DNA of 64,000 nucleotides from Botryllus schlosseri (taxonomy: Eukaryota), in NCBI GenBank assembly GCA_051294905.1, contig CM119372.1, positions 32,118,001 to 32,182,000 on the forward strand. The letters are read 5' to 3'. The notes under the pieces are model-generated. The model saw only the letters and a program-made list of their open reading frames with translations. It did no database searches and was not told the DNA's origin. The position numbers and the translations under genes were made by a program. Positions 15,301 through 56,922 of this stretch are shown in pieces (the first letter of the stretch is position 1; each line of letters starts with the position of its first letter).

Positions 15301-18300
15301 TTTTATTCCGTATAGTGTTCACTTGCAGCTTACACACATACTGTGTTCAGAATCGCAGGTTATGGTAGATTCGCAGGCATTTGACGCCGATTTAAGTACT
15401 TCGAACTCGCAGAATTCACCAGTCGATGCTCCAGGTAATGCATCATTCAAATACGCTCGTTATGTTGCTGACCCATTGTATATCGTGAATTCAGCTGTGG
15501 TTGCATTGGCTGCTGCTGAAGATAAATCTAGAGAGGAATTTCTGTCTGGCCTCTTTGAACAACTGAATCCGAAGGAGCTGCTGGCTTGTGCGATATTATT
15601 AGTTAAAACCTAATTGAGCGTCTGCGCATTCCTCAAAATATTTTTATTTGTTTGCAGCGACGGGCAGCAATTTACAAGGCATTGGAGAAAGGATAGCAGC
15701 TGCGCTACAAACGACAGGTATGCGTGTGAAGAATAATTATTGGCGAAATCGTATCACAGATGATTCAAGCCTGATACCCTATATTTGGCTCGAATCGAGT
15801 CACAACTGTCCTATAATATTTTATTGAAGACAAAACGGGAAAATAGGAAACCGAAACGAAATATAAAGCCATCAGCACAGTGAAAAGCGTAGAACTATTG
15901 CGCAACGAAAAAATAAAATCATCATAGCTTCCAAATAACCGTACTGTGCTACAGTCACATCGTTTAGATCGTATGCGGAAATGTTATAGGCCCAAAGAAG
16001 GGTTTCCCAAACGTTTTATGATACCCATCCCAAATTTCGATTTGAAAACGTTTCGCGATCCAACCTCTCACTTTGACATGCTAGTAACTAAAAATGGGTC
16101 AGCATCACCTTCGCCTAAACTTACGCACGGCCTATGTGCGCAGTAAGATCAATTGTAAACTCGTCAACCTCCGACCTTAGATTAGTAAACTCAATTTAGA
16201 CCAGTGGTTCCAAATTTTTTTCGTCTCGTGCCCCCCTTGGCCGATATTTGAGCTAAAATTCCCCCCCCCCCTATGAAAAAGTTGCCTGTGACTAAAAATG
16301 TGCTTTTTAACGCGCAACCATTTGTTGACTGAGCAATTAATGGCCAACATATTCAGATATGTCCGAAGTATTTCGAATGCGGATCGACCGCACTAAACTT
16401 TGGCAAAGTACAGTCAAATTTGACCTGTTTTTGACCGGTCGGGTAGCCGCTGACAAAAAATAAATCACCAAGTCCGCTTGCTATGGACTTGAGTTGAATC
16501 GATGAATTTGGTACGGTATGTTTTTCACGTTAGCTCATATGTTGGCTTAAAAAGTTAAACAATTTCACTAGCGGCCTTGTGCTGTATTCGGCTTGACGTT
16601 TTCCTGCTTAGTAGCAATTTTGGTCGGGAGGCTGTCGCGGACCCAACGAAATCGTCTCGTGAGCCTCACTTAATCAGGGGGTGTAATATCTACGGAAGGC
16701 ATTTAAACATACACCTAGCTTGAAATCCGCGAAAGAAACATACAACTTTAAAGAACTAATTTCTACTTAACAGTAGGGATGGTGTGAACGCGAGGTTCAC
16801 GTTCGCGTTCTGTGTGTGAACCTCGGAAATTCAGAGGTTCGTGTTCACAACAGAACCTTGGTAGGTTCTGCTCTGTGAACCTTTTTGTTATATTACAATT
16901 CTAAGTTCATTATGACATTTTTGGTTCGAATGACGCTAGCAGCATAAAAAATCAACACAAAACGAGCATGCACGTTTTACACTCTGCCCAAGATCAATGT
17001 AGCAATACTCAGACGCCGAATACATTATCCGGTATGGTCAAGACCGTTTAGGCGTAAGCTTATATTCCCTGGCAACTCCTCGTCGAAATTATTGGCAAAG
17101 CGACGGATGATATTGATTTTATGGGAGTATTATGTCATTTGATTTTCTCAGTTGATACATTTAGCGACGTTTAAAACGCAAATATGTACTTAAGCATAGT
17201 GGCATTACGTGGCCCGAGTCGTCGCTAGGTATCGTGTACATTAATATAGGCTATCACTTCATTGAAAGATAGGGTTGGAATTAGCAATATGACGTCATGT
17301 GACGTCATGAGGTTCACGTTCGCGTTCACACAGAACCATTCAAAAAGGTTCGCGTTCACACGAACCTGAACCTTTCAGAGGTTCACACCATCTCTACTTA
17401 ACAGTTCTATACCATAAAAATCTAAAAACCTTGTGAACCCAGTGTATCTTCCGATACAATGCAAAGCCAGATTTCCCCTAAAAAATTAAGCCAGATTCCC
17501 CCCTAAAAATTTCAAAATTTTCCCCAAGGGGGGAACTCCCCCCCGGTTGGGAACCACTGATTTAGACTATAGTAACATAAAAAGGTCCATTCAGACGATT
17601 TCTATCTATATCCAATCGAAGTATGGTCAAATAGTGATACGTGAAATACTGCGTCACGCAAACTAGAGACAACGATCTTATCGGCCGCGCTGAGCCGGTC
17701 ACTTGTAGTTTTCCTGGAAGGTAGAATTACCGTGTTATTGATTTATATTGTGCTCCCGACTCTTTAATCCTCATAGTGATGGTCAGAAGCTGGCGCTTTA
17801 TAATGACGATACGACTGATCCGCGACTTTGTTTACCGTGTTCGCATTCCTCGGAGGTTGTGTTTTGTTCTATTTTGAAAGAATGAACTGAAATATTCAGA
17901 TATGCACCGCCGATAGTATCCGCTTACTCGGCATTCTTGTAATAGTCATTGGTATTAAATTTTCGTCTCCGCGAAACCAGAGAATAGGTAAACGACCCCT
18001 AATTTTGTGAATTCGTGGTCTAAAGCCATCAATTCGCCTGATTGGAAAAGCATCGAAACTTTCCCAATTGCAGGGGATGGATTTAAAGCTTCATTAATTA
18101 GGTACAGTGCTACACGCCATCAATATTACCTGCAACAGTGTGTCGTACTATATTTCCGGTTGTGATTTATATCAGATGATCGAGATCAACTTGTAAGTAG
18201 GACTGAGCACAATGATTCGAGTAATCGAATAGAAATCGATTTATATATTAATGATTCGAGTCGTGTGGTAAAATACGATTTTATTCGTGTACTGAATTTA

Positions 18301-27300: not shown

Positions 27301-30300
27301 GGAATTTTTAATTGTGACGTAACAGTTGATTGGCATGTATGGCTCTTTGGGAGTTGAGATGGAAAAAATAGGGCCAATATGGCTCTTCGGACAAAAAGCT
27401 TCCCCACCACTGAGCTAGGTAAACACAGTTGGGAATCCCCAATAATTAGGAGAATTGGCCACTGATCTTTGGGGGCTTTGAGGAAATAGAGGATCGCGAT
27501 GAAAATGACAAAAATTGCTCCTTAAAGTGTTTTTGTGTACTAAACCATCATTTGGATCACAATGGTCGAAGTTTCCTGACAATTTTTCAAATCTGAACAA
27601 CGCTAGTGTTCACCGTAACACTAATCACTGTTTCCCATCAACATGTCAAAATTTATAAACGTTAAAATAATTGTTTTCGGGTCGGGATTGGTGTTGTGGT
27701 TGCGGCTTATTAGGGTTACGGGTGGGGCAAATTAGGGTTCCTACACGTGCCACTTCCTTTCCATCGGTTGCTATTATGTTATCTTCTGTTTTCTGTGTAT
27801 ATGCCTGCTCTTTACATCGTCTGGTCAGTGGTCCCCACCTTTTTTATGGTCGCGACCTCGAGACACCTATTAATTCCGATTTGAAAATGTTCCGCGACCC
27901 CAAACTTACTCACGACCTATATGGGATTCCGACAACTATGTGCGCAGTGATAGCAATTATACAATTCTGGACGCGTCTATCTCCGTCTCCGTCCAAGACT
28001 ATACCAATATATCGTTGTTCTGGAGCGAGTTTTATCCACATCGAATCAGCGTAGTCAATGAAATTCTGCGTCGCGCGAAATGCAGACACGAATCTGTAAG
28101 TTGATCTGACGCGCTCAGCACGATTTTTGTTTGTTTGTTTGTTCTCTTAACTCAGTGGTTCCCAAATTTTCAAGAAAACTTCACGAAATGGTTCCATTGC
28201 AATCTTTCGAATGGCTCACGGCACCTCTCTTATCACTTCCGGTAATTAATACACTACCCTTTACACATCCGATTTGCAAACGGTATCATGCGATTCACGA
28301 ACGAGTCGAATTTACTAACGCCATACGCAAGACTTATTAATTTTTTACTCAGCTTAGTAAGCACAAACTATAGTGTTATGAAAATCGGTGTACAGTTGTT
28401 TTCTTGTCGCGTGAAGCGCCAAGTTTTTTAGTTGGTAAATTTTGTCGGTATTACAGTAATTACATTGTTGAAGCATGTTGGTATTTCGTGAACCCAGGTA
28501 ATGATTGTGGCTACTCGAATGATATGTCGGAGTCGCTCACACGTACCCGACTAAACTAAAGAAAATATCATTTTTTCAATTCTCATTTCAACAATGGGAG
28601 CATTCTTTTCCTCCGCGTGTTGCATTTGTACCGCGCGCAGCTTAGATTAGGACTATATCGGTGCCTGAACAGTGAACATATCAATATCGCAAGTTCCGGC
28701 CAACATGCCGCCAGTAATCTTTTTGCCAGCTCGTGAAGTTGCGTGTTGGCCAAACCGCTCTATGTCTTGGTGCGTCCTTGCGCGGAAACGGTCAGCAGCG
28801 CTGAAATGCCGATAATGCAGCCGCTCTTTACACGCACCTAGATTAAAATATCTCAACGGCCTTAAGGGATGCTCTCATAATTGTGAATGCAGGAAGATTC
28901 TTCAGATTTCAATTCTGTAAATTTATGCGTATTTTGTTCCGGGGTGGTTATACGCACAATTTAATCGAGAAAATCATAAAGTGACACCAGAGCGCGTGAA
29001 GCGAGACTAACATTTGAAATTGAATAATTTAGCACTAAAATATCCTACTTTATGTTGATTAGCGATATTATGTCCGCTACCATCGAGTTTGATTTAACAA
29101 CAAGTTGCCTGAATTTTTTTTATATTCAAAAAATTACTTTTTTTCTGAATATAGTTTGAATTTTTCAGAACATGCTTCGCGGTCCTAAATATTGTCTCGC
29201 GGACCCCAAACGAACGTCGTATCCCGTTTGCAGAACGTCTATGTTAACACATAGCGCTATCGGTCACTTGTAGTATACCTGGATGGAAAATTACCACCCC
29301 ATTGATTTCTATGTTCACGACACTTTTATTTTCATAGAGGTGGCCAGACACCAACCTTACGTTAGAGTGGATGGCGCTTTAACATGACACTTCGACTGAT
29401 CTGATACCTTGTTTGCCGGGTTCGCATTTGTCAGAGGTCGTCCTTTCCTATATTTTACAAAATGAACTAAAATATTCAGAAATGAACAGCCGATAGCACC
29501 CGGTTCAATGGAATTATTGCAATGGTCATTGGTATTTAACTTCTGTCCCGCGACTCCACAGAACAGGCAAACGGACCCGTCGCGGTCGCCACCCTAGATT
29601 GGGAAGCCCTGGAATACACTAACTCAAATATTCTTCTATAATTCGATTATATCGATAGAAGAAACGTTTCGGAGTCTAAACACACACCTTTGCTCATTTC
29701 TTACCAGCATTTATGCGTGATTCAGCTAGTCAGCTCGAAGTTGTCGGTCACATGTTGTCACCGAAGACTGTGTATTGCCAGGTCTGGTGTCACGTCAAAT
29801 TTCTGTACATTACGGAGCTGGGGATGTTTTTAATCAGTTTTAAATGTGATGTGTTGCTTCTTTTATCAATTAAAGAACGTTCAACATATTGTATTTTTCA
29901 ATTGAAGTATAAAATTACAAAATATCTGGCGGACCGGCGGTTGAGAACCACTGGTCTAGGTCAGGGATCATCAAACTGGAGTAGGCGAGCAAATTCACCT
30001 AGTACACATTCTGTGTGAAAATTTCAAGGTTTATGTGGCAAGCGAGAAAAAATATTTGGCATGCCCACTGCCAATTTACGCCAATTTATGCCGAGTCAAT
30101 GCTGCTGAGTGTATTGAATTTTTGGTACTCTTTCCCAAGAAAAGCTATGCATGATTTATATAAATAGGCATTCCGGCATCGGCCATTATTGCGCCACGGT
30201 GTGCCAAGACATGAATCTTAGGCAAACATGGGACTCTGAGAAGTGTGCCAAAAAGATCGGCAGCGGTTAAACCTTGGCCAAAAAGGACTGACCTAATGTT

Positions 30301-33300
30301 GACCGAAAACTTCGATATAGGCCTATATATATAAAAATTTATAATTGTCCAATGTCCATAGATGCCTGAATAGCTGGCACCGAATTCTTCAGTCCTGGCA
30401 ATTCGCACAGCACAGGACAAATACCACCATCCAGAAAAAAGATACGTAGTAGTAAAGAGTACCAATTTGAAATCGTGTGGGTCTTTTAGTTTAGTACGTT
30501 TGGGCGATTTAAAATATTTCATTAACTATCCAGCAGACAGAAAGTAAAAAATAGCAACATTTCAAACAATCAATCGACAGATGATATTTTCATTTGCCCA
30601 AGACACATACACAATGTACAATGTGATATACAAGTCACACAATGCGATGTAATGAATAGATAGGAGGTTGCCGAACGACCAACCAGTTGGGGTCTCTTGA
30701 ACTGACAGTAAGTAATTATACCAACGGCCCCACCTGAATATGTTTAATTATTAATTACGTGCCCTAAAATTTCTAAGACAACACCTCACTCAGTTCTAAC
30801 GGTACATTTGATTACGTGGGGTCAAGAGAGGATGAAATATTTCTTGAAAAAAATATTAGCAATGAACAATATTATTGACCGATTCAATCATGAATTATAG
30901 AAAAGTTTCGTGCGATGAGGACGTCTAAGCTCACTGATTACTAGGGCAAGTTTTTGCAACTTTTGCAATCTCTTTTACAGCTTCCGGCAGCTTCCTAAAT
31001 ACTCGTAAGATATGTAGAATGCTGTTTTAAGCTGGTTGAAGGAATCTTATAGTGCAACTTTTTGCAACTTTTGTCCATTTTTTTATGCAACTTTTTCGAT
31101 ATTTCATGAAAGTATTTTGTATTTTGGTTAAATACACGGCCAAATTCGACTGAAATACCGTAAATCAGCACTGCAGTAACGTTCCTACGGGTATTTCGGG
31201 AGCTGAGCCGGAAAGTTGACCTTTTTTTAGTCAACGAGCAAAATGTGGTCTTTTAGAGCAACTTTTGTGTAAAAATAAATGTAACTTTTTACTGCAACTC
31301 TTGTCAAAAATAAATGCAACTTTCCACGGATTTACCGGCAACAAAAACTTGCCGTACTGATTATCAATATGAAATCTCGAACACAAGTTGTAGTGAAAAC
31401 GGTCACACCAATGGGGGATCTGGGGGTCTGCGTCTCCCAGACGTTTCGTCCATCACCCAATAGAGGGGCCCAAGACCAACGTTTTGTGGGGGGCTGACGA
31501 AGTGATGTTTCGACCCTAATGCTGTATAATGTTAATCGCTTCGAAGAGATTAAGAGTTTAGTAATTTTATGTTGCTCATCAACCGCGGTGATGAGTCTTC
31601 CGTAGCCCATTGTAGATTTCGGATTAGTTCTGTCAGCAGCAGTCATTCACTGAATATGATGATTACTTTATTAGCGCTATTTAAATGTTCAGTGTTTTGC
31701 TTTTGTACAAATAGTCCTGATCCTGAAATACCAGATTATTTCGCTGTGAAGCAGCTGGCATTATTTTCCATACAGTGACCAAATAAGGTAAAAATTAAAA
31801 CTTGAGAAGTCATTCATTAGGCTATGACATCATAACAGCAGATAGTACTCAAATCAAGAGTTGGACAATTAATTGTAATTGTAATTGGCTGAATGAAATT
31901 AATTACATTTTTTCATGTAATTGTAATTTGATATTTTTACAAGGAGTAATGGTAATTGTAATGTAATTGAAAGATGCAAGGAAGTAATTGTAATTATAAT
32001 TGAGCTGAAATAATGTAATTGATCCAACTCTGGTTACCATTACAGGCCTTATTAATTGCTGTAGTTATCGTGGATACGCCATTACTGTCACTTTCAAGTG
32101 ATCCAAGACATGATATAGGTCTTTATCGTTGCTTAGATTCACAGGACCTTTCAGAGTCACAAATTCGTTGTCGGTGAATAAATTTTCCTTTTATATGTCG
32201 TCTTTTTGGGATCCTAAATTGTGCGCAGGGGCGATAATTTGTGTCGAGATTGATAAGGAAACGATTAGTCGATAAAGGTTGGGACCACTGCACTAAACTA
32301 AACAATGAGCGTCATTTCACAGCTAAGACTAGCTCTTCGCCAATAAGAATACTGGAAAGTGTGCAATGTTTCTCGCATTGGAGTACAACCTTATTCCATG
32401 CTAGTTTTAATGACATGAGTGAGATATCAAAACGTGAAACGATGATGAAGTGATAAGCTGCATAAAAAGTTCTAAAAATGCGTTTTATAGGGTATGAGGA
32501 ATGGATAAATTATTGAAAACGAAGTTTTACATCAGTTAATTGGTTAAATTCACACAATCATGGATCTCTCTGGATTCGAATAACAGCTCCAATAGCTTGT
32601 GATCCAATAACAAATAATGCGTCCGTTTTGAGGAGTACCGCTGGCTACTATAATTGAGGGAATAATACTTCAACATTAATATAATTTTTGTTCCTACGAT
32701 CATGTTCTTATCAGTCGGATGTTGGATTCATGTTGATTTGTTTGTTAATTCAGATTCAGATGGCACACCGTTTGGTACTGACGAACATTCCGTTCGGGAC
32801 ATTTTATCGGAAGTTCTTGGAACATTGGATTCAAGCAATATGTTAGATAGTACGATACTAGTTATTTGAACAGAATAATACAGGTATACATTTTACGCTT
32901 TCTCTTATTTCAGCAGCGAAAAATATCCTCTCACGAGACGTTCTGGAATCTATGAGAGCTATCTTACAAAATCGAGGTATGTGTAGGCTGCAGAGGAATC
33001 AGTGTAGTATTTCCGACTACTCGAGTAACCCTACGCAAAACTCAGGTTCATGAGTTGTGTGACTTGAGCCAATACACGATATGAGTCATGTTATATTCAT
33101 ATTTTCGATGTGGGAATACGACGCAACTGGATTTTTTTGAGCTCATATACCCCAGATGTATATGCCGTAGTTTGCTACACAGTTACCCTAAATTCAAATG
33201 GTGAGTGTGATACGCAAAATAAAACTAAACTATAGTTTAGTTACTAGGGATTCACTTCATGACTGCATGTATTTCGGTTCTAACTAAAGCCCAAGGCCTG

Positions 33301-36300
33301 ATAAAATCCAATAACGAAGGACATGTCAGTGCTGAAGCCTGTAAAAATTGCAGTATGTAATAACTTCATAATGTATAACCATTCATATTGAAATTAATTC
33401 ATGCATATGACAAGGGCTTTATTTGCCTAAAACATGATTGATACAACATCATGTGCTATTTCAGATGACAGCGCCGATTTGTCTGCTGTTGACGAAGGAT
33501 CTGCTCTGGAAATGTTACGAAACGTCCATGGACAAATACACGAAGGTGGTCAAATTAGTCAAGAACCCTACTCTGTCGAAGTACAAGTAGCGACGCAAAA
33601 TACACCAAGTAGGCCTACTAGTAGAAGTAGCACTATAAATACAACCTCAAACTACTCCATGTAGAAGCAAAATTGGCTGACTTTAGATCTAAGTAAGTAA
33701 GTAGTCATAACAGTTATAATAGGTTCGCATGTACTGTCAAAAGCTACAAATTAACCTATGCCGAAGGTGCAGAGAGCTTGATTCATATTGATGCCTCTCA
33801 GGAGGAATAAGTCTTCGGAAGCATGAGCATTCGACCGCATCATGAGATGCAAATCACAGTTTTGCTATGGAAAACTATTCTAATATTTTCATTACCTGAA
33901 CAATGCGATCCATAAAAGGTCATGACATGACTCCCTCCGTATTATAAGTCCCGTCGTGTATACGAAGAGCAAAAGGGAGTAGAGGTATATGATATGATGT
34001 TTACAAGTTGCGCGATTGCTATACGTAATGAAAAATGTGGCGGATATACTGTAATTTAATTTCCGAAAAATAGAAGCAATAATACATTTCGTTTTAAAGT
34101 CCAACATGTTTGTTCTCCAGACAAAAAAACAACAACCTGAAATCAATTAGAAGAACTCAGAGTAATGATACTACGAAATAAAAGACAAGTACAAATACTG
34201 TTGCTAAAAAGCGGAATATATTTTCCTGTCTTTTGTATTGAAAGTTTCAACGGTGGTCTGCTGAAATCAGACTAAAGTTAAAAAAGCAATGCATATACCA
34301 TTTTTCCTATGCGATTGGTAGCTTTCAGATTGCGAAACGATCGCTCCAAACGTTTTGATAAGTTAGATATACTGTGATGAAACATATCATATGGGCAACA
34401 ATGCGATGTGAACGAAAACACGCAACCCGCGCTTGAATTATGTTAACCGATACTTTCGTGAAAACATGTTTGCCACTCCATATTTGCGTTGCGCTGAAAG
34501 CGACGAAAACTCCGAGCTTTACCTAACTCTTTTTAATATTAAATTTTTGTTAGTACTCCATGAAAACAGCCTCGAAATTCCTCAGTCTTTCTCTCACTCT
34601 AACTGGAAGAATATAATACTTCTACTTGACAAACTGAAAATCGGGAAAAGTAAGTAAGTAAAAGTAGAAGTAAAAGTTTCGGGAAATTAGATTTACCTGA
34701 GTAAGTACGTACTGCAAGTAGTGGAAAACTAATTGACTTCTTCGAAAAATTAGAAGTACTTCTTTACTGACATACCAATAATAATACATCCAAATCGTCT
34801 TTTGTCTTGTGTGATAGTACTTATTTGAACAGAAATGCACTCTTATATATAACCCTTCCCCCTTCATTTCAGCGGCGAAAAATATCCTACCCAGAAATAT
34901 CCCGGAGGCGATAGCAGCTATCATGCAACATCCCGGTATGAATAGGCTAGATAGGAATCAGTGTAGGAGTTCCGAAAACTTTGATTGCTCTATCTATAAT
35001 TTAGGTTTATGAGTGTGGTGTAGGTATACACACATTATTCATGTTTTGTTCATTTTTTCGATGTAGGAATACGACGGGACTGTTTTTTTGACGTTCGTAT
35101 TAGGGATGGTGTGAACCTCTGAAAGGTTCAGGTTCGTGTGAACGCGAACCTTTTTCAAAGGTTCTGTGTGAACGCGAACGTGAACCTCATGACGTCACGT
35201 GACGTCATATTGCTAATTCCAACTCTACATTTCAGTGAAGTGATAGCCTGTATTAATGTAAAATGTACAATTTGTACATGTACGCGTACGTACACGATAC
35301 CTAGCGACGACTCGGGCCGTATGCTACAATGCCGAAGTACTTATTGACGTTTTAAACGTCGCCAAATGTATCAACTGGGGCAATCAAATGATATAATAAT
35401 TCCATAAAATCCATATCTTCGGTCGCAAGGTGAAATAAGCTTACGTCTTAACGGTCTAGGTCAGCTATAGGCCGGACAATGTATTCGGCGTCTGAGTATT
35501 GCTACGTTGTTATAGAGCAGAGTGTAAAACGGGTTTCTATACTTGCTAGTAGCATGTTGCTATACCGATATTACCCCAGTAACAAGTTATACAGCAGTAG
35601 CCAACTCCCAAATCGCACGGATTTGGCTTTTATGATACCATAAACATAATAAATCAAGATTGACCCAGTACGCCTGCTAGATTTTTTATTTCAGACAACG
35701 ATATAAATTTCATTGATTTGTCGATTAGGCATCATTTGCTGACTACCTACATGTAGTGTATTTCGTTCTTGATGTTGTGTGATTGCGGGTCGAGTTCACA
35801 GCAGAGAGTCACTAAATATTTACAAACGGAAAGCTGGTAATTTCGAGCAAACTTTTGTAACAAAGCAAGTAAAATTTTTGAGATTGTCAAGGTGTATGCT
35901 CGTTTAGTGGTGATTTTTTCGTATACTGCCAGCGTCATTGATAGAGTGGCCCACAGTTGAAATGCAATCAATTTCAACCAAAGATGTTATAATGAAGTGA
36001 AAATGGTAATATATGAAAAAGGTTCACAGTGCAGAACCTACTAAGGTTCGTTTGTGAACGCGAACCTTTAAATATGTGAGGTTCACACCAGACATGGGGT
36101 AATCGCGATTAGTAATCGTAATCGATTACGACGATTACAGCATTTTCAAGTAATCGTAATCGCAATCGATTACATTCGAGAAAAATCCAAAGTAATCGTA
36201 ATCGTAATCGACTACTTCACATATCTAATCGATTTCTTTGTGAAAGAACGATTACTTTTTATCTGTACAATGAACATGACATAACCGAACATTCGTGAAC

Positions 36301-39300
36301 AAGGAAGAGATATTATACCAGGTTACGGATAGCGGAAACGGTTGATTTTCAAACGCCACTGCTCATTATTACGTCAGAAGTATTAGCTTTGCTCGTCCTT
36401 GCGTAAGAAGTAGGCTATCCACACGTAGTAAATACATATTCGATGTACATTGTTGTGTGATTGTTAGAAGAGTGTAAGCCATGCTGTATATTAGGTTATC
36501 AATACGCCCCAGACGCTACTACCTCGCAGCAAGATAATAATCACCACTCTTCCTAGTTTCAAATAGTAACTTATGTATTGATGTTTGGTTATGTTTAGTT
36601 AAACGCAGTTTGACCGTTGATGCTTGGCGAGCAGTAGGCCTATCTGTGTAGTATACGTATGTATTGTACGTACACAGGACAAAGATTTGAAATTTTGTAC
36701 TCGTCAAATAAAACATTACGATGGTTAAAATTACCTGCTGCTGATATATCATAACCGAGCCGTTCTTTGCTGTTTCTCGTAACGGCAGCTTTCAGTAGCC
36801 TATCTGTATTGAGTGTAAGAATTTTTAGTTCATTTTATCTTATTCACATATGACTCTACTTGAAACGGGCACCAATCGTTATTTCACAATACTTCACTCG
36901 AAATTTATACCTGTCGCCATAGCCATCCGCTTATGCACCGAGTTAGCGTCGCTTGTAGGCACAATCAGGACCAAAACAGCAATTCGTCCCCCACTCCCAA
37001 CGTTGGTATTGGTAGGGTTGTAACCAAGTCACAATGTTCCAAGTCACAAGTCAATCTCACTTTTATAGTTTTGACTCGAGTCAAGTCGAGTCATTTTCAA
37101 TTCACCCCCGAGTCAATTCCGAGGTCAAGTCAGCTAGTATAGGGACGAGTCCGAGTCATAGTGTTTGACTCGAGTACGAGTACAAGTCGTTATGTTCACA
37201 GATCAGTTTTCATATCAATCCGGGTCAACCAACTTCTTTCAACTCTGCTCGAGTGATATAGAATGGCTCGTATTCATAATAAAGTGATTTTCATCAGTTT
37301 TCACAGTTTACGGCCCTATTTCCAAGTATCATAATGTGGTAACTTTACTATTCGAAGTTGCATGCAATGTCTGTCTTGACCGCTCTAGTCTCGAGTCATG
37401 CAAAATTACTCGAGTGCAAGTCGAGTCAATACAAAAATTTGGCATTTGGCATTTGCATTGTTGGGGCTCAGATTGGAAGGACCGGACTATCGTCACGCCC
37501 ACAGATCGCGGCTACTGACAATGGACACATACCCAAAGTTTTGGCACAAAGGTCATTCTTTGGTAGCACACTTTGTTGGAGTTGCATGTTGGCAGAAATT
37601 GCATACGTCTTTCGGTGTGTCGTGGCGGGGTAATGACCGTCCCCGAAATGCCTACTCATATAAATTATGCTTGCTTTTTTTCTTGAGAGGGAGAGGTATG
37701 CATTTCATAATCAAGCTATTTAAAGACATTAAATCCCGAAGCTCAAAGAAAATTTTCAAGTTAATTAACTCTCTTGAAAATACTCTATAATAATTTATGT
37801 TGATTTACGAAATACTTTTGAGCCCCCTTAGAGCTCGCTCCCAGTCCTATTGGGGAGTTTGGGGTGTGGCAGTTACGGACCTGGCAACAATGCAAATCGT
37901 TGGGTGCGACGAATAGTCCTGCATAGAGTTGGGCAATGGGTGCATTATGGCGTAACAAGCAAATGAAGTATGATTTATGAAGAAAGTTGTTATCTCATCA
38001 GACCTTTTCATCGCAAGCCTTATATTGTCCTCCAATATCTCTTCTGAAATTAGTTTTAAGAAGTAAAACAATTGTAATCGTGAGTAATCGTGATTACTTT
38101 TGAAATGTAATCGTAATCGTAATCGACTACTTCCTGATTTTGCTGTAATCGTAATCGTAATCGTAATCGCGGGATTCGCAGGTAATCGTAATCGCAATCG
38201 ATTACATTCGTGAAGTAATCACCCCATGTCTGGTTCACACACAGAACGCGAACGTGAACCTCGCGTTCACACCATCCCTAGTTCGTATACCCCAGTGGTA
38301 TATTCCGCTATTCCTTCGCAGTTATCCTAAATTTGACGGTTGAGTGTGATGCACAAATCTAAACTAAACTCTGTATGCATTTCGATTCTAATTAAAGCCC
38401 AAGACCGGCTAAAATCCAATAACGAAGACTGCTGTAGGCCTGTAATAATTGCAGTCTATAATAACGTCATATTGTTAATTTATTATTATTGTATATAATT
38501 TATGCATATGGTTAGGATCTTATTTGCGAATAATTAAGGACTTGTTTGATATAACGTTCTAATGCTACTTCAGATGACAGAGCCGGACTGCCTGCTGTGG
38601 AGGAAGAATCTGTTTTGCAGACGCTACAAAACCTCCATGGACAAATACACGAAGGTGATCAAACTAGTCAATAATGTTACCAAGTGGAAGAAGCAGAAAA
38701 GTAAAATTCTATTTAATTACTAGTTGATGTAGTAGGCTACTTTCTAAAGCAACCTTAAACTACTCTAAGTTAAAGTAGAATTGATTGGCTTTCAATCCAC
38801 TCATGTAAGTGGTTGCAAACAATCATAATACGTTCGCACGGACCGTAAAAAGCTGCAAATTGACCTATGCGAAAGGTACAGAGAGCTAGGTTCCTATTAT
38901 TCCATCCCAGGAGGTATAAGTCATCGACAGCATAAGCATTCGACCGCATCTTGGGATGCAGCTGAAAGTTTTTTTTCTATGGAAAAGCGAATATATTTTT
39001 TTGTTACGCGGACGCCATGCTTCATAAAATGTCATAGCATGACTCCCTCCCCCTTGATTATAATGCCCGTCATTGAAAGGAGGAGCAATACTGAGAAGTT
39101 GTAACGGATACCGTGTTATCACTTTACACGATGAGTATTTATTGATAGAAAATATGGACGAATTGCTGTAATTTTATTTCCGGAAGATATGGGTAATTCT
39201 GCACTTGGTTTTAAACTCCAAATAATTGTTCTCCAGACAAAGGAACTAAATTGATTTTGAAGAACTCAATGCAATGATACTGCGAATGAAAAGAGATATA

Positions 39301-42300
39301 CAATACTATTACGAAAACGCGGAAATATAAATCTCTTGTCTTTTGTCCAGAGAGCTTCAACGGTGGTCTGCTAAAATAGGTCTAATGCTAACAAAATGAC
39401 AGATACCAATTTTCCGGTACGATAGGTAGGGGAGATGTGGTACCGATGGATCAAAAATTGCAAAATGATCTCTGGCCCTCAAATCTTCGGCCGGGAATGG
39501 CAGATCTTTTGCTGTCTCAATACTTCGATACAAGCTCTACCTATCGCGGACATTTACATGAATATCAGCCTTTTCAAAAAATATTTATAAACGTTTAAAA
39601 TTTGTAGCTCGAACGTGTCATCGGTGGGTCCAACGGCACACGACCATGGGACCTATGAGACATACGCTCAAAAACTCAAATTTGTTAACTTGTTTTGTTG
39701 TGTACTATAAGCTAAGCTACAGCAAGCCAATGAAGAATGTTTCGTCGCGACCTTCAAGAATAAAATAGATCATATCAACTGAAATATTGGCATAAAATCA
39801 TGTTTTGATATACGCCTAAACTTCCAAAATTAATGCCATATACATATTACCCGCAAATCGACATTTTGACTTTCAAATAACTCGTAATAGCGATGAAACA
39901 CCACAGGTACCTATGATTTACAGCCTATATATATGTAGGCGAGTTTCTGTTGTTAAGTGATTAGTTGGCCCATCTATTTTGCCTGATTTCGCTATGGTAC
40001 CATAGGTTCCCCACCCCATAAATATTGTAATTGACTTGAAAATAGTCCACTCGAGGATGATATTGATTAAAAAAATATGTGCCATTATATACCCTGATAT
40101 AAGCCCTATACTTCACATCAAAAATTATGGCGGGTTTGTTAGTCTGGAAGGTGATATAGAAAAATGCAAATGTCGATCCAAATTTACTTTACACCCCCTA
40201 AAACGTAAATCATTCGTCACAGACCCCATAACTCACGCAGGTCGAATTTTTTTGCATGTGAGGAAAGATTCTGTCAGCATGTAACTGTAGACAAATTCAC
40301 GGAGTGTAATCATGGAATTATCATGGAGAATTCTTCAAGTATTTTCGGTCCTAGTGATCCATCGGTACCACATCTCCCCTAACTGCTAGATTGCCAAACT
40401 ACAATTCCAAACGTTTAGATCAGTGGTTCTTAACCTTGCCCCCAGTGCCCCCCAAGGGGCGCTGGCGATTTTGAAGGGGGGCGCGAACGCTCAGGGGGCG
40501 ATATGGGGGGCGATGGGCTCAGGGGGGCGGTATGGGGTGGCGCTGGAGAAAAATAGCTTCGGAGTAGATGATGTGGTGATAAGACATATCCTTAATGAGT
40601 ATTCAGAGCAAATTAACACCGAAAACTTCGTTACATATAGCCATCAAAATACAGATAGGTTTAATTGTGCATGGGCGCTTAAATGACTGACACCGAATGT
40701 TCCTGTCTTGGCAATCTGGATTCCAGAAGACGAATTCCATCTAGCAGGGAAAAGTTATATGTCAGTGAAGAAATACCAATCTGATATCATCTGCGTCTTT
40801 TAATTTAGTACGATTGGGCGACAGGGATATTCCTGTTGGGCGATATCCCTGTTGAGCGATTCTATATTTTTTAATATTGCAGACAGGGGGTCACGAAATA
40901 ACATCATGCAACGAAGTCATACCACTTGGTTCGCCCGCCCGAATATGTTTAATTATTAGTAACGGACCCGACAGTTTCCAAGAAACCTCACAATGTTCGC
41001 TTTAAGTTTTGATGAGTCTGCGCACACTCAACAACTCACTGCGCTGACCCTTGGACAACAGTGCGTAACGACTAAAAAAAGGTAATAACTCCGGATTTGT
41101 TGTGCGCAACGTAGATTTTCTGTGCGCAGAGACCGTGTCAGCACTGCACATGTGCGCACTGCGCAGCTTAGAGGCAACATTGCACCTCACTCAGCTCTAC
41201 CGGTAAATCTGTTTACGTGAGCAGAGAGAGAATAAAAATTGATCTCAATTTACATGCAATTCCCGATAATATTGACCAATTCAGTAATTAGGGGAGATGT
41301 GGTACCGATGGATCACTGGGACCGAAAATACTTGAAAAATTCTCCATGATAATTCCATGATTACACTCCGGGAATTTGTCTACAAATACAGGCTGGCAGA
41401 AACTTTCCTCACATGCAAAAAAATTCGACCTGCGTTAGTTATGGGGTCTGTGACGAATGATTTACGTTTTAGGGGGTGTAAAGTAAATTTGGATCGACAT
41501 TTGCATTTTTCTATAACACCTTTCAGACTAACAAACCCACCATAATTTTTGATGTGAAGTACAGGGCTTGTATCAGAGTATATAATGGCACATATTTTTT
41601 GAATCAATACCATCCTCGAGTGGACTGTTTTCAAGTCAATTACAATATTTATGGGGTGGGGGACCTATGGTACCATGGCCAAATCAAGCAAAATAGATGG
41701 ACTAACTAATCACTTCGCAACAGAAACTCTCCTACATATATATAGTCTGTAAATCATAGTTACCTGTAGTGTTTTATCGCTATTACGAGGTATTTGAAAG
41801 TCAAAATGTTGATTTGCGGGTAATATGTATGTGGCATTGATTTGTAAGTTTAGGCGTAAATCTAAACATTATTTTATGCCAACATTTGAGTTGATATGAT
41901 CAATATTATTCTTGAAGGTCGCAACGAATCATTCTTCATTGGCTTGCTGTAGCTTATTTTATAGTACACAACAAAACAAATTAACAAATTTGAGTTTTTG
42001 AGCGTATGTCTCATAGGTCCCATGGTCGTGTGCCGTTGGACCCACCGGGTGGGGACCGATAACACGTTCGAGCAACAAATTTTAAACGTTTATAAATAGT
42101 TTTTGAAAAGGCGGATATTCATGTAAATGTTCGCGATAGGTAGAGCTTGTATCGAAGTGTTGAAACAGCAAAAGATCTGCTATTCTCGGCTGAAGATTTG
42201 AGGGCCAGAGATCATTTTGCAATTTTTGATCCATCGGTACCACATCTCTCCTAATTAGTGAAATTTTTCGCAGCTCGCGCGATTAGGCGAGAATAGCTGT

Positions 42301-45300
42301 CTCAGCAAATGGACACCCAATGTAGATACCTAATAGGCTATCAGCAAATAGCGGACAGCCTAATGGGGGTCTGGGAGTGAAGTCCCCCCCCCCGGAAGTT
42401 TGGTGTATCACCCGATGGGGGCCCAGGGCCAACATTTTTTTGTTTTTTGGGGGGGGGCTGACGAAGTGCTGTTACGGCCCTGGTAACGAATAATTGTACC
42501 TGCAGGCACGCCCAAATATGTTTAATTATTAATTACGTGCCCTTTATTTTCCCATACAACAGCTCAGTCAGTGATACTGGTAAATTTGATTACGTGGGCT
42601 GAGAGGATTAAAAGTTTATAGCGACTTATATATGTAATTACCACCTATTCATTCATGTATTGTAGAAAATTTTGGTACCTAGGGCGACCAGACCACACAA
42701 ACTTTGCTGACTATCAAAATCGCGATATGGGGTACGTGGGGGCGAAGCCCTCAGAAGTTCGGTTTATCACGCTATGGGTGCGCAAGGCAATCGTTTTTAG
42801 GGGGGTTGACGAAGTGCTGTTACGGCCCTCCCTCTTACTCAGTTTCTTTATTACATTCCTTACAATATGAAGTTGGGGGGGCGCTGGAGCACGGTAATGT
42901 TTGAAAGGGGGCGCTGGAAGAAAAAAGGTTAAGAACCACTGGTTTAGATGATTCGTAGATCCTATGATGAAACCTGTCATTTTGGCGACAATGCGACGTG
43001 AAACGAACCATATCACCGGCCATCTAAACTTATACTGACCGATACTTTGGTGAAAACAATTCGTCGCTCCACTGGCCAAAGCCTTCGTGAAAATTTAATT
43101 CATGTCGTTACTACGTGAAAACAGCCCTGGAATTCCTCAGTTTGGAGGACTATGATATTTCTACTTGACAATCTAAAAAGAAGGAAAGGTAAATAAAAAA
43201 TCACAAAATATTACGAAGTAGAAGTGGAAGTATAGAATGAAATTACTTAAATGCTGCTAAAAAGTATAAGAAGAACGTCATTACTTATCACATCAGCAAA
43301 TACATCCAAATCAGCTCTTGCCTAGTGCGATAATACTTGACTGAACAGAAGTGAACCTTTACATATACCGCTTCTCCCTTCATTTCAGCGGCGAACAATA
43401 TCCTACCTAAAGATTTTCTGGAGTCGGTAACAGCCATCCTGCGAAATCCAGGTATGAGTAGCCAGCATAAGATGTAGCGTTGAAATTCCAACAACTTAGA
43501 GATTGCCCTAGCTGAAATTACGGATTACGAGTATGACATAGGCCTATACCACTTACTCTATCATACGTCAAGTTACACCAAATCTTTAAACACGTAATAG
43601 AGTTTCATTAATTAGGAATTTCAGCATCTAAAGCAGAGGTCTCAAACTCAAATGTGCTCGCGGGCCAGTTTACCAGTTTTGACGACGCCGCGGGCCGCAG
43701 CATTTATAGGGGTATTCTATGTCTTTCCAAGTAGGCCTTATTTGGCGGGAATGAATTGTCGTTTTGAAAGTGAGCTGATCCAGCAGACTGACAGTAAACA
43801 CACATCGTCAAAATGTGATTTACTATTGTATCAATTTAAGCCTGTCACGAAAAGAATCATCACATTTATAACTATTTGCATCGTATTGTTGTTGTACTGG
43901 ATATATATTAATTATAAGATATAGACACCATATGGGCGGACAAATGTATGATGCCATCATAAAACATATCGGGTTATAATTTTTCAGCTACTATGAATAT
44001 TTTGAATTGGACAGATTGATAATAGAGACTGATCTGATATCGAAACATTTTTAAGTTAAGCATTGTAATTCCAATTCAGGATTCGGGTATACTTCTGATA
44101 AGTAGGCTATTAATCTCAGGGCCGAATATCTTCAAATATAGGAGCAGAAAAAATCTAAATATAATATCAATATATTGATGAATGTGTCCTAGTGATTGAA
44201 ATGTCGGAACGCCGAATGGCCCATTGCTGTTACATAGTTGGAGCGTACCACTGGGGTACTCGGTACCTTTATGTGGCCTTAATAACATGGTTTAGCGACC
44301 AAACATGTAACTAACAGATTGCCAATGGCTGCCATAACTACTTGCTTGGTTAGCGAAATAACAAGCTGCGACCTTATGATCTATTTACTATTCCCCTGAT
44401 ACGCGATTAGTTTGTTGCGTCCATGGTTCTAACAAATTCACGGCATTTCGAGTCACTTCAAGTCCACTCGAGTCATTTTCTTTTGCCTTCGAGTTAGCCC
44501 GAGTCTGAGTAATTCTAAGAAAGGTCGCATCCAAGTCCAACTCACAAATTTCAGTCACAAATCGTCTAAGGGTCACGTTTTGTCATCATGAGTTGGAAAT
44601 GTGGCGAAATAGTGAATCTTCCACTGCATGGTTGCGTTTGCAATTGATGTGATAGTGAAGTTTGATGAATAGTTTCAGGCTTTCGGAGCATTTTAAGAAG
44701 ACATTTTCACTTTTTAACCTGAAAAGATATATGTGACACTTATATATTGTCAAATTAATAAAAATATATATTGTCAAATTAATAAAAATCTAAAATGTCG
44801 TCGCGGGCCGCACAAAATGCTTTGGCGGGCCGCGTGTTTCAGACCTCTGATCTAAAGTCTGTCGCATGCCGTTATATATGAACCCGTGAAGAATCATCAT
44901 TCTCCCTTCAGTCATGCTTGGAACACAATGTGTAATCATATCGAAGTGTCAAAATTTGCCACCGTGAATACGGTTGCTTGAAAAATTGGTCAAAATTGCA
45001 ATTTCAGATTGCATGCCTTCTATTGTTCAGAACTGACCTAAATTTGCTGTTCAGCGTATCTTTAGGTTACCTGACAATTTTATCATTACTCAAGTCAAAT
45101 TTGGAATAACCCTAATGTAAATATATACGGAAGCTATGATATCTCATTATTGTTATAGATGTAGGTGCGTCATTACATGCATTTGCATAGTTTTCAATAC
45201 TAATGAAAGCTCTAGTTGTGATACACAGAATATACATTCACGACGTGAATTCATGAACCCAAAATAGTATACATAGACAAGCGTGTATAAATCACATCTT

Positions 45301-48300
45301 CCCGGTCAAATTAAATCCGATAACAACGAAATCGAGTTCAGTGGCTACCCGCCGGTAGAGAATCCTCACTTGTAAGGAATTATGGCTTCCTGGAGGGGAT
45401 CAGATGCACTTGCAACATAAATACATATTGTAAATACGTAATGTTTGTAGGCATAACACCAAGATTATGGCTTACAATTCACTGCTTAGGACTGTAGGTA
45501 TCCCTTATTTTCTGGCGTATTTTCCGCCAAAAACTCATTTCGAATTCAGGTTGACCAATACGTGGGTTACAGGGTCACAGGCATATCTAGGGCGAGCAGC
45601 AAGACGCGCAATGAAACTTTCGTAGAATTTGACTGATTTCCGGTACACAAGCAATTATATATTGCAGTAAAAGGCGATTGTTTATGTCACCTGTCAGACG
45701 ACCCGGGGATATTGGTTGCACTCAAATATGCACTTCTATTCAGAAAAATTACGATGAACTGCCACAATCATGGGTTTTCTATACGACAGTTGTCACTATC
45801 AATCCTGGGGCATGTTAACTTGTAGGCCTACTAATAGAAAGTCCTTACTAGGACAGGTTTTTGTTGCAGTACAAATTTGAGGAAAGTTGCACTTCTTTTT
45901 CACAAAAGTTGCAGTAAAAAGTTAAATTTAATTTTCATAAAAGTTGCACCAAAACGTAGCATTTATGGACAAGTTCCTTAAAATTATTAAGGTATGATAT
46001 ACTCGAATCGATCCGTATCCAAGGCACTGTAGAAAAACTCAGTGTTGGCGACTTCAACAAAATCAATAGCCTGAAAAAATTGACCCGGTGAAAATATAAT
46101 TTTCGGCGGTCTAACCTAAATGTACGTCAAATCAGAAAGTACCTCAAATTTAAACTACGGTGAAATAATCAAGCGATCTATTTACATATAGTGCTAAATA
46201 TTTCCAGAAATAAGGTAGTTGCTTGAAAAATTGAAAAGAACTTGCAAAACGTTTCTTGAGAAATCGAAAAAAGTATAGTTGCAAAACGTTTCATGAAAAA
46301 TTGAAGAAGTGGCAAAAAGTTGCAATATAAGATTCCTCCAAATAGCTTAAAACACCATACTACATGACTTCTGAGTGTTTGGGAAGCTAGCTGAAGTTGT
46401 AAAAAAAAATTGCAAATTTGCAAAAACTTGCCCTAGTCTTTACTACACAAGGTCATTCCAAATTTTAATCTTTGGAGCATTTCTAAGAGTTAGATAAAGC
46501 TAATTAAGGTTATGGGGAATTATGACTCGAAAAAAATCAGTAGTGGTGATAAAGAAGAAAAAAGTTCGTAACCACTGATATGGGGAGATAGTTCGAATAG
46601 AAGCCTGCCGACTGGCAAGCTGTGAACGTGATTGTATAACCGGAGCTGTTTACCTGATGTCAAGCGTTCAATTCATGTCGATGTTTCAGATAAAATTTCG
46701 GAGGAAAGTGTGTTCCAAGGACGACCATGGGAGGAAGACAAACAAGGTTTGGATCCTTGGCGTTTGTTAAGTCCTATAATGGAATTAATTCTACATCAAA
46801 GTACCTACATCTGATAACGAAATCATTAGCTTCCGAGTGCTAATCCCAGGCGTATCCTCTTTTCGAGTCCACGAACTACGTCACAGTTTAGCAGTTAGGT
46901 GATCTAATGAACCTGAAACCAGTGCTCCCCAGCCGTTGTTGTTACGCTCCTCTATTTGACAACTTTGGAAATATTCATTCCTTTATATTGTAGTACAAGC
47001 CACGATGCTAGACCCGAAAACTATATTTTGGTATTCTGATCTGCATTTATAAAAGTCACCGGCTAACTAAGTTGTTGGTTCGGCTTGTCAGAACATATCA
47101 CGAGTCCAAGTCGCAATTGACTGACATGAAGTATATGTATCACTTCACCAGTAATATTGTTCTCATTCCTCGCAAGCGATGTCCAGGGTGTGTAACGGGT
47201 TTTAGTATCATAGGAGGAAATCCATGTGACCGGATTCGGCGGGCATTCGTATTAAGCAGAGACCAACTTAATAAATCAAGTTCGTGGCACAAGACGAGAT
47301 ATACAACAGTTACCATTCGCTACGGGGACAGTAGCAAGCATTGGTGGAAGGCTATATTAGTGTCATCATTGCGGTAGCCTATAGAAATTTCAACATTTCA
47401 CGCTAATTCGATGCAAGTGCGCGTCTGCCTTCGAAAAGTATTTACCGACCTGTAGAATACATTTAGCGCAGAAACATTTTCAATGCAAAAATATTTAAAG
47501 TTTTTTTAATGAAATTCTCGGTTGGCAACTACTAGCCAAGGGTCGACTTATGTGTCATTAGAAGGATTCTAAACCATATAATATAACACAATACATAATA
47601 CATCCCTAACAGAATATGGAACTATTATTACAAATATAACTTAGATCTATCAATGCTATCCCTAATTAACATGGAGTTGCATGATTTTTTCCAGTTATGG
47701 AGCAATTGAAATACCCGTATGAAGAGGAATTTGGTAAGGGTAGATAGCCACTACACAGTTTATATACCTCTTTTTCTCTATATATACTGCATAATGTACA
47801 GTGTATGTATATGCAGGTGCAAGCCGATATTGCTGCAACCCAAACCCCCCGAAACTGAGGGAGCTCTAAGAAGGTCAAAAATTATTTCGCAAATCAGCAT
47901 AAAGTAGAATGTTCTAGAGCAGATTTACTTTTCTTCCCTAAATTTAACGTAATTTAATTATTCCCGCCTGACAAATACTACTATTAACAATCAATGCAAA
48001 TAATTTACAAATATGAGTCTTACTTTATTCATAATTGTTATACGATTGCATATATTCCTAGCAGTGTTGGGATCAAATCACTGCCTTCGAGTCACGAGTC
48101 ATTTCGAGTCATTGCACATTTTGACTCGAGTCAAGTCAAGTCAAACGATGTTCGAAGGTGACTAGAGTGAAGTCAAGTCACTCGATTTTTGGAGGCGACT
48201 CGAGTCAAGTCAAGTCAAGTCACGAGTCAAATCAAAATTCAAGTCAAGTTGCTTTTTCGAAGCATGAAGCATGATTACGTCATTGATGAACGAATATAAA

Positions 48301-51300
48301 GTTAAATGTAGATGCAATAAAGGGCTGTATCGCTCACATATACGTAGAACTGTTAAACTACACAAGTAATTGCATAGCCTCATTTTATAGTTACCAGCCA
48401 AGATAGAGAATCGAGAAACGAATTGATAAGATGCAATACAGTGCCCATTTATACATATTGATATGATACAATTCGAGTCTGCGCCAGTGGTTGAAGAGTA
48501 TATGAACTATATTCGATTTCTATATCTATAAAACAAGAGGTTCGGTTAAGGTAAGAACAGAAAACAGAAATAGATATTTTGCTAATAAATTACTTTACTA
48601 CTAGTTAACGGCAACGCAATCTGTAGCTTCGATCACTTCATTTGTGGTCAATATATTTGTGAGAGAATATTGGCGGCTCAGTAAAACGCACGATCATTGA
48701 ATGATCGGTCGCTCTCGTAGGTTACACAAGTGTTTGGCGAAAAATCCGACATATGCAAGATAACGTGATTTTTACTTGATGACTTGAAATTGACTCGTGA
48801 ATTTTGCTCCGAGTCACGAGTCAATCCACAATTCTGATACGCCGAGTCAAGTCAAGTCAAGTCATTTTAGCAAGGTGACTCGAGTCAAGTCAAGTCATAC
48901 GAAAAAGGTGACTCGAGTCCGACTCGAGTCAAGTCATGACTCGAGTCATCCCAACACTGATTCCTAGTATCGCATGATGCCTTGTGCGGACGTAGGCAAG
49001 CTTTAGTATAATGCAGGAACCCTGCGCTAACCTTCAGGCTTTTGCAGAATCTCAAATTTTCGCAGAGTCACGAAAAAAGAGACTTCTACAACTACGCCAT
49101 TTATTGTTGCATTCAAACTACTTACTACTAGATACTCCTATCATGTAAGGCACAATCACGTTTCTGGTGAACCAAAATATCCGATTATCCACCACTCTGT
49201 ATTGACCGCGTGGTAGTGCTTCGGGAGACTTTCGCGCCGAAAAGACCTGTTCCCGAAACCTATATACTATGGTTATGACCACGCACTGAAATAGCCGGCC
49301 CCTAATTGTGCTGTTCCTTCAATCTGAGCCGCGCGGTGCGAATGCGATCAGCAGAGGGCAATAATACGTCTCGCGAAGGGAAACAGCAATATTGTTACGG
49401 CTTCAGACTGGACATTGGAAACTCAACGGGCACTTACATAGAATTGGATGTCACGACGATGGCCTTTGTGCAACATGTGGCGTTATAGAGACGGTTGAGC
49501 ATTTCTTGTTACAATGTTCTCGATATAGCTCACAGCGTAACTATTTTAAGGACATTGCACTACGAAACAATGTGCCCATAGACATTGTGTCACTTCTTGG
49601 CAACCCTTACACAATTTTGCCTGTGATCGATTATGTTTTCCTGACAGAGAGGCAACTAATGCAGCAGTAGAATCTAGTTCACATGCCTACAACACTTTGG
49701 TCTGGTGCACAAGGCCGTAGCTAGGGTTCTGGTTTAAATCAGGCTGATTTAAATCAGTGTGATTTAAATCAGGTTTTTTTCGTTGATTTTTGATTTTAAT
49801 TTTACCATTTTGATTTTATTGATTTTTTTGGTTTTTTCAAATTTTTCGGACGAGATGCGTGAATGTGGGTATTATTATCGGACAATCATGTGCATTTTAT
49901 ATAAACCGGAGATAACATCTCGTCACCGGCACCGGTATATTTCAGCTATTTGACAGACAGATGGGAAAAGGGCGATAGTCAAACAATATGTTAGCGTTTT
50001 GCTATTGAATACTGGTTAGTTGTCTGGAACATGCTGCTGCTATTTCCAAGGCACTGCTGGGATACAGCAAGCGAAGCGCAATCGGGAGTCTCTATCGAAT
50101 TTGAAAAAATCCCATATCTCTGATCCAGTTTTCTGGCAGAAACCACTCCATCGATCAAGATGAATTCAACTATTATGGATGGTCCCGATTTGACTCAACA
50201 ATGTTTCCTCGCTAACTAAGAGATCTATCGACTACTCCGGACCTATCATTTGGAATGCATTACCACCACATATCCGTGAATTGCCTTATAATGGATTCAA
50301 AAGAGCCCTACTTGATCACCTCTTGTCGTTACACTAACACTGTTGCCCTACCTCGCCCAGACATTGCTTCATTGATCATTTGCTACCATCGTTTAATTTT
50401 TCTTGTATTTTCCTTTCTTAACTAAACATTTTTTACAGCCAGACTGTTCAGAGTCAAGTGTACCTGTTTGATGCTGGTGTGATCAGACTAGATGACCTTC
50501 ACGGTCTTATCGATCATTCCTATCTAATACCGAATACTGTGCACGCGTATTTTCTGCACCGCCATCACTGCCGTTTGTTGTGTATTTCGGTTGGATGAAA
50601 ATAATGACTCTCTCTCTCGCTACTAGAACCGATCAGTAATGATTCGCGCGGCCCATCATTATCACATAGGTTTTCAGCTATCATTACCACATAGGTTTAA
50701 CGTTTTCAGCTATCTGGATGATAATTCACTGCCCCACATTATTAAAGTGTAAGCGTTATTCTTCATCACCTTGATTGACATGGTCGTCATTCATCCCATT
50801 TTCTTTGGTTTGGGTTGCTGTTATTATGAGTAAAAAAACCAAAAAAATCAAAAAAATCGTGATTTGAATTATTTAATTGATTAAAATCGATTTTAATCAA
50901 GGGCAAAATGATTTAAACCAGAACCCTAGCCGTAGCTGCTAAGCACCATAACCACAATATACATACATACGTCTCGCGAAGAAATGTGAATTCGGAATCG
51001 CGTGTATCGTACGTGTGACCGACTCCCGTGCCCCTTGAGTGGTAATAATCATTCACAGAGGTCACGAAATATAACATGCTTTTTGTGATAGGCCCGCGCC
51101 ACACTCATGAATAATCCGGTGTGGCAGGTCTCAATAGTTACAATATTCTAACTAAACTCTTCTCGGCCATGCACATGCACACGCAGTCAATACAGAGTGG
51201 TGGATATTCGGATATTTTGGTGATACTGATACTGAAGACTGGACGGAATTATCAATCCACCGTTCGAGTCACCGCTCAGGATTTGATCTGGCTTTTGGGT

Positions 51301-56750: not shown

Positions 56751-56922
56751 ATTATTGGGTTTGACTAATAAAAATATCATTTTCCCAATCAATTCAAGAA
56801 AGACCCGCTCCCACATAAAATCAGTTAGCGTTGACCATTATTGGGTTTGACTAATAAAAATATCATTTTTCCAATCAATTCAAGAAAGACCCGCTCCCAC
56901 ATAAAATCGGTTAGCGTTGACC
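56751..56922 (+). repeat. Direct tandem duplication of ~86 bp, each copy containing AATAAA
   Basis: ATTATTGGGTTTGACTAATAAAA...GTTAGCGTTGACC occurs twice. Confidence 0.9.

Follow-up and report, generated by a model that had tools for sequence, protein, structure and literature searches.

Organization of the two-exon gene units

We analysed a stretch of 64,000 nucleotides (the window), which is one part of the 495-Mb eukaryotic assembly used in our genome searches. A profile scan of the window revealed six two-exon units on the plus strand between about 3900 and 43500, starting at 3935, 14643, 15495, 32754, 33465 and 38574. A unit is made of an exon-1 of 93–96 nt (81 nt in the two interrupted units described below), an intron of 64–70 nt and an exon-2 of 60–66 nt. 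In the order of the units, exon-1 measures 93, 96, 93, 96, 81 and 81 nt, the short intron 68, 66, 70, 64, 64 and 64 nt, and exon-2 60, 66, 60, 63, 63 and 63 nt. A single consistent frame is open through all 12 exons, whose borders are all phase 1-1 and whose lengths are all multiples of three, and AG or GT is found at each of the 24 exon borders. The length changes among the exons are always multiples of three while those among the introns are not, which argues for a real coding history of these units. Two of the uninterrupted sister units have an exon-1 of 96 nt. The unit at 14643–14870 (plus strand) consists of exon-1 (14643–14738), a 66-nt intron and exon-2 (14805–14870), and the unit at 32754–32976 (plus strand) of exon-1 (32754–32849), a 64-nt intron and exon-2 (32914–32976). 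The profile scan detected no extra unit in the window, in the 20 kb upstream or in the 10 kb downstream. DNA searches of the same genome with 33263–33545 and 34781–34945 as queries matched only the two interrupted units and thus returned no paralogue with an empty insertion site.

We then investigated possible relatives of the encoded protein. In a large protein collection, no homologue was found for 14474–14968 (region 58–133) among longer proteins, nor for 33431–33661 among proteins of near or greater length. A profile built from the six exon-1 peptides, which is a weak one of 31 positions, had no match among 1.84 billion representative sequences. In 122 plus-strand frames of at least 60 aa, no Pfam family scored above its threshold; two sub-threshold matches were to DUF4238 (16.2 bits) and zf-RVT (18.4 bits). 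The zf-RVT match (reverse transcriptase zinc-binding region; cut-off 27.5 bits) lies at 49365–49667, which is probably a retroelement remnant. The gene is an orphan built from repeated units.

The short intron can be aligned in all six units (4028–4095, 14739–14804, 15588–15657, 32850–32913, 34809–34872 and 43325–43388), and its copies share a GTRYGATA start, an AAC core and a TTCAG or TGCAG end. The exon-1 peptides of the six units are only 13–48% identical. Judging from these alignments, the exons seem to change as fast as the short intron or faster; diversifying selection on the protein and splicing signals within the intron are both candidate causes of this pattern. Upstream of exon-1, the units at 3935 and 15495 may each contain a further small exon (3760–3815 and 15330–15420, respectively). 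Its flanks are homologous and it has a GTAATG donor, and its proposed ends differ between the two units.

Other repeats are scattered between and around the units. A repeat at 2816, 11660 and 44500 was considered as a set of further exons and rejected, as it represents another transposon family. Its three copies (2816–3119, 11660–11951 and 44500–44855) carry a GC-rich palindromic motif near one end; they are non-coding and lie outside the gene units. At 56751–56922, there are two tandem 86-bp copies that are 97.7% identical.

A hAT-like element inside exon-1 of two adjacent units

Exon-1 of the fifth unit in the window, called module 7 in the initial annotation, is truncated. It occupies 33465–33545 on the plus strand, measures 81 nt with an open frame and phase 1-1 borders, is preceded by AG and followed by GT, and matches the profile of its sister exons with an E value of 3e-12. 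As the initial annotation had read it, the exon runs through a target-site duplication, CAAATACA (33533–33540, plus strand), and CGAAG into a GT at 33546–33547. These final five exonic nucleotides (33541–33545) are element-derived, and the GT, which lies in the terminal repeat on the plus strand, is the proposed new 5′ splice site (AAG/GTGGTC). The element itself is an old non-autonomous hAT-like copy of ~1.24 kb at 33541–34780 on the minus strand, inverted relative to a young copy at 60396–61700. The derivation from 33541 onward that had been put forward for this region is borne out by one match with the reverse complement of the young copy, which extends over 1324 columns with 71.8% identity (E = 1e-73) and includes the terminus. 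A terminal repeat is indeed present at the exon, as had been claimed, but it reads CGAAGGTGGTC and not CAGAGGTGGTC, the form of the family. The right terminus of this element is decayed.

Downstream of the element, on the plus strand, are a decayed right copy of the target-site duplication (ATAATACA, 34781–34788, with six of the eight bases like the left copy), a stranded former exon end of 20 nt (34789–34808), a former donor GTGTGA opening a former 64-nt intron (34809–34872) and exon-2 of the unit (34873–34935; 63 nt, phase 1-1). The coordinates of the duplication, exon end, donor at 34809 and old intron were all reproduced, and the alignment with the sister units agrees with them. The stranded 20 nt align with the last 20 nt of the sister exons and are 75% identical to the corresponding tail of the next unit, and the former intron aligns with the sister introns. 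In the alignment of all units, the tails, old donors, acceptors and introns of both interrupted units match the four uninterrupted units column for column. The 76 nt of exon-1 before the element and the 20-nt tail add up to 96 nt, which is exactly the length of exons 14643–14738 and 32754–32849; we recomputed these lengths and obtained the same sum as the initial annotation. Because of this sum and of the right-hand alignment to the sister units, there is no doubt about the ancestral exon or about its donor and intron. It is well supported that a transposon landed inside a former 96-nt coding exon and stranded 20 nt of it together with the old donor.

The initial annotation had treated this event as private to the fifth unit. 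We found the same insertion in the next tandem unit, and it predates the duplication that separated the two. There, the truncated exon-1 (38574–38654, plus strand) is also 81 nt long and ends with CAAATACA-CGAAG before GTGATC. The same old element (38650–43296, minus strand) has grown to 4.6 kb through younger nested repeats, and both copies of the target-site duplication CAAATACA are intact (left 38642–38649, right 43297–43304, plus strand), so that the same eight bases stand on both sides of this insertion and at the left border of the insertion in the fifth unit. The stranded 20-nt tail (43305–43324, plus strand) is followed by the old donor GTGCGA at 43325, a 64-nt intron and the 63-nt exon-2 (43389–43451, plus strand). 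Two young copies of a ~960-bp repeat (39427–40393 and 41277–42253) are nested in this element in inverted orientation. Their arms are 93–94% complementary, flank ~880 bp and explain most of the expansion of that intron to 4.7 kb; the two are 93–96% identical to many genomic copies (9052 first-look candidates).

The two interrupted units have the insertion at the same site, in the same orientation and with the same 8-bp duplication. A single blastn match (33263–34321 versus 38371–39429, 73% identity) crosses the border between exon and element. Both units carry the terminal variant CGAAG, which is rare (27 genome matches, with 4 for the control), while the canonical 14-mer terminus has 4555 genome matches (1 for the reversed control). 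Each insert matches a consensus made from eight young copies at 75% identity, and the identity between the two inserts is 69–71%; 84 derived sites are common to both, 37 sites depart from the consensus differently in each, and the private differences of the two inserts number 122 and 136. The insertion is old, standing ~25% from the family consensus. The shared site, orientation, duplication, rare variant, border-crossing alignment and derived sites together indicate that the element inserted once, before the tandem duplication of the unit, and that the two copies passed through a shared history followed by long independent decay. Alternatively, members of the same family might have inserted independently at the same site of two paralogous exons, which might be imagined for so abundant a family, with its 4555 canonical termini. 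However, the site, orientation, duplication and rare variant are all common to both units, 84 derived sites are shared and one alignment spans the border of both, and independent insertion is effectively refuted.

We then characterized the family to which the element belongs. The young reference copy at 60396–61700 (plus strand) is 1305 bp long and has the terminal repeat CAGAGGTGGTCA and the target-site duplication GTACTAAA; the longest frame between two stops in it measures 58 aa. All eight family copies examined are flanked by a perfect 8-bp target-site duplication and carry CAGAGGTGGTCA as the terminus at either end. In the genome, the best 40 of 5874 first-look candidates were scored, with at least 46 matches, and the near full-length ones are 85–94% identical. 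The terminal inverted repeats of hAT elements are short and begin with YARNG. The family has the 8-bp duplication and termini that fit YARNG, and the copy at the exon has the derived form CGAAG; by these features, the family classifies as a non-autonomous hAT-like element. Miniature inverted-repeat elements (MITEs) in the strict sense are usually under ~800 bp and occur in high copy number. The copy number of the family is high, with 4555 canonical termini, but at 1.3 kb the element is long for the label MITE given in the initial annotation, and 'non-autonomous hAT-like element' is the safer name.

Putative use of the terminal-repeat GT and competing explanations

The proposed course of events is as follows. 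A hAT-like element landed a single time in a 96-nt phase 1-1 exon, 20 nt short of its 3′ end, and left the rest of the exon without its donor. With its upstream edge, the element brought a donor-like motif (GAG/GTGGTC in the family form, AAG/GTGGTC here), and the five element bases after the target-site copy would complete an 81-nt exon that keeps phase 1. The element GT would then be paired with the acceptor of the resident short intron, and a single 1327-nt intron (4734 nt in the next unit) comprising the element, the stranded tail and the former intron would be spliced out. The protein would lose its tail residues, including the Leu-Leu motif conserved in the sister units, and acquire two others at the junction, so that five codons would be lost on balance; the initial annotation had arrived at the same phase and the same cost, and our count agrees. 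From a given insertion point, a frame-keeping length has a one-in-three chance, and the locus would represent a survivor. The unit was later duplicated in tandem with the element inside. Since then, the 81-nt exon, its GT and the exon downstream have stayed intact in both copies, whereas the element has decayed and, in the second copy, gained younger repeats. We lean, by a modest degree, towards this full rescue reading, in which the element GT at 33546 serves as the donor for the acceptor of the exon at 34873; both this use of the GT and the expression of the gene are what we infer from the arrangement of the locus.

Several observations lend indirect support to this use of the GT. In the next unit, an in-frame stop at 38672 follows soon after the border and leaves only two phase-keeping GTs; of the phase-keeping GTs that precede a stop, the one in the terminal repeat alone is common to both units. 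When the units are compared over ~1460 aligned columns, their longest stretch of identity (33525–33548) lies across the proposed donor, and the second longest (34860–34879) lies across its partner acceptor. We simulated neutral decay at the non-coding divergence of the two units (27% differences and 15 indel events in 1017 aligned bases). In this simulation, the probability of a second copy free of stops and frameshifts and with all four splice dinucleotides retained was 0.0044 for the two exons jointly; for single exons, it was 0.052 for exon-1, which is borderline, and 0.090 for exon-2. On an approximate position matrix, which allows a rough ranking only, the new donors of the two units score 1.2 and 3.1, above the old exon-1 donors (−1.7 and −1.25). 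Two further ideas were rejected. The change of the family form CAGAG to CGAAG was considered as a splice-site improvement, and the altered position −3 has nearly no effect on the rough matrix; at 25% divergence, two altered bases out of five are nothing unusual. Re-inclusion of the 20-nt tail through a second small intron would require a frame-keeping AG before the tail, and neither unit has one.

We then investigated RNA reads. Among 22 listed raw-read RNA runs, we took four bulk ones that bear the same species label (X4, X6, X8 and X10), sampled each at 6–13% and mapped the reads to 28001–48000; a search of run records with 32740–34940 listed no RNA run as containing this sequence. Between 420 and 1004 reads per run were mapped, almost all of them partially and on repeats, and 96–98% of the mapped reads continue in a way unlike the stretch, as expected of repeat copies elsewhere. 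The depth over 32670–34003 was 0–0.03 in the four runs, with essentially no reads on these exons. The joints 33545/34873, 34808/34873 and 38654/43389 had zero reads at this coverage of the exons. Just downstream of the first interrupted unit lies another repeat family (35101–36088, with copies at 56958–58071 and, inverted, at 16809–17396; 80–95% identical). Most reads in 34671–36671 end at the borders of the 35101–36088 repeat and therefore come from copies elsewhere. Run X8 has a pile-up at 38006–38672 with a depth of ~20 and loose ends at 38007, 38041, 38059 and 38234, and many differences in it are fixed. Its reads seem to stem from a repeat expressed elsewhere and not from exon 38574.

The same data can be read as skipping of the damaged exon, with 32914–32976 joined to 34873–34935, the next unit treated likewise, and the 81-nt pieces left as stop-free relics. 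Skipping would keep the frame, as all exons are phase 1-1 and all 12 lengths are multiples of three, and inclusion was seen in none of the four RNA runs at the depth given above. The identity between the interrupted units is 80% in exon-1 and 76% in exon-2, not significantly higher than the 73% of non-coding sequence (Fisher p 0.16–0.19), and the retention of exon-1 alone under neutrality, at P = 0.052, is not compelling. On the other hand, the longest identical run falls exactly on the border of exon-1 and element, and the AG, the GT, the open frame and the unchanged length are kept in both copies; we regard skipping as unlikely, while taking it seriously. Use of a different donor inside the element, such as CAA/GTAGGC at 33609, would extend the exon to 144 nt, and 21 of its codons would come from the element. 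This site keeps the phase and, on the rough matrix, scores slightly higher than 33546 (1.89 versus 1.17). However, it has no counterpart in the next unit, where the in-frame stop at 38672 comes first, and its surroundings are not specially conserved between the units, which makes it a very improbable choice.

It might also be that the gene has ceased to function in its last two units or throughout the locus, so that the insertion was simply tolerated and the intact frames are leftovers. The empty exons in the 6–13% samples of the four RNA runs fit this possibility, as does the failure to find a protein record or Pfam family in the searches described above. Between the interrupted units, dN/dS is 0.233/0.354, or ~0.66, with a wide error over 47 codons, which points to weak amino-acid constraint, and the exons are no better conserved than the short introns. 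Against a dead locus, the joint retention of frames, four splice dinucleotides and lengths has the probability of 0.0044 at non-coding divergence, the exon length changes among the units are all multiples of three while the intron ones are not, and the units at 3935 and 15495 differ in exon-1 with a dN of 0.38 versus a dS of 0.80. We consider loss of function unlikely. Returning to the use of the element GT, the rescue interpretation offered in the initial annotation is, as a whole, partly supported.

Relation to Ds elements, introners and intron sliding

The nearest known parallels come from transposons that alter splicing. Among the maize Ac/Ds elements, the classic cases are alleles of waxy and adh1. 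The arrangement at our locus is like that of maize Ac/Ds in that the element is of the hAT type, a donor-like site lies near the terminal repeat, and a few element bases would be exonic while the rest is intron. The maize Ds cases are mutant alleles, whereas here an old, fixed insertion is found in an animal-type genome and its splicing is deduced from the DNA; in addition, unlike in maize Ds, the acceptor here would be that of a resident intron, 20 nt of the exon would be lost and the arrangement was later duplicated. Ds is described as providing only donors, close to its terminal regions (PMC5395267).

Introners of Micromonas, Aureococcus, dinoflagellates and others resemble our element in being short and non-autonomous with terminal repeats and target-site duplications. 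They create a new intron, and do so in many genes, whereas the element here would fuse with an existing intron, at the one locus studied. Two reports describe MITE-like introners that carry a single splice site, the second being supplied by the duplication or by the site of insertion, and whose insertion can add or delete codons (PMC9860276, PMC11282704). In our case, the element holds only the donor-like site, its 3′ end has no frame-keeping AG, and the acceptor (34872) is that of the pre-existing intron, so that no complete new intron would be formed. By this comparison, the locus would work like the Ds case, and it falls outside the introner definition because the acceptor belongs to the resident intron.

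A shift of an exon boundary by a new or cryptic 5′ splice site is known as intron sliding. As in intron sliding, the exon end here would be displaced in frame, by a net −15 nt, which is a multiple of three. Unlike in intron sliding, the site would have been imported by a transposon and not made by a point mutation, and the intron would have expanded from 64 to 1327 nt (4734 nt in the second unit). A more far-reaching idea is that this very abundant family constitutes a genome-wide reservoir of portable donors, with GAG/GTGGTC on the sense strand at the upstream edge of every insertion in either orientation, that the fixed site here has been used constitutively since before the tandem duplication that copied it along with its exon, and that the family acts as a metazoan half-introner that remodels exon ends via resident introns. 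We consider this wider proposal doubtful and offer it as speculation.

At present, the locus offers a well-documented structure, putative splicing and an orphan gene. If transcripts confirm the splicing, it would be a clean and datable natural case of a coding gene that survived a transposon hit in an exon, and the later duplication would provide two independent evolutionary replicates of the rescued state. If true, a mechanism familiar chiefly from Ds alleles in maize and from introners of protists would then also apply to an insertion that is old and fixed in an animal-type genome.
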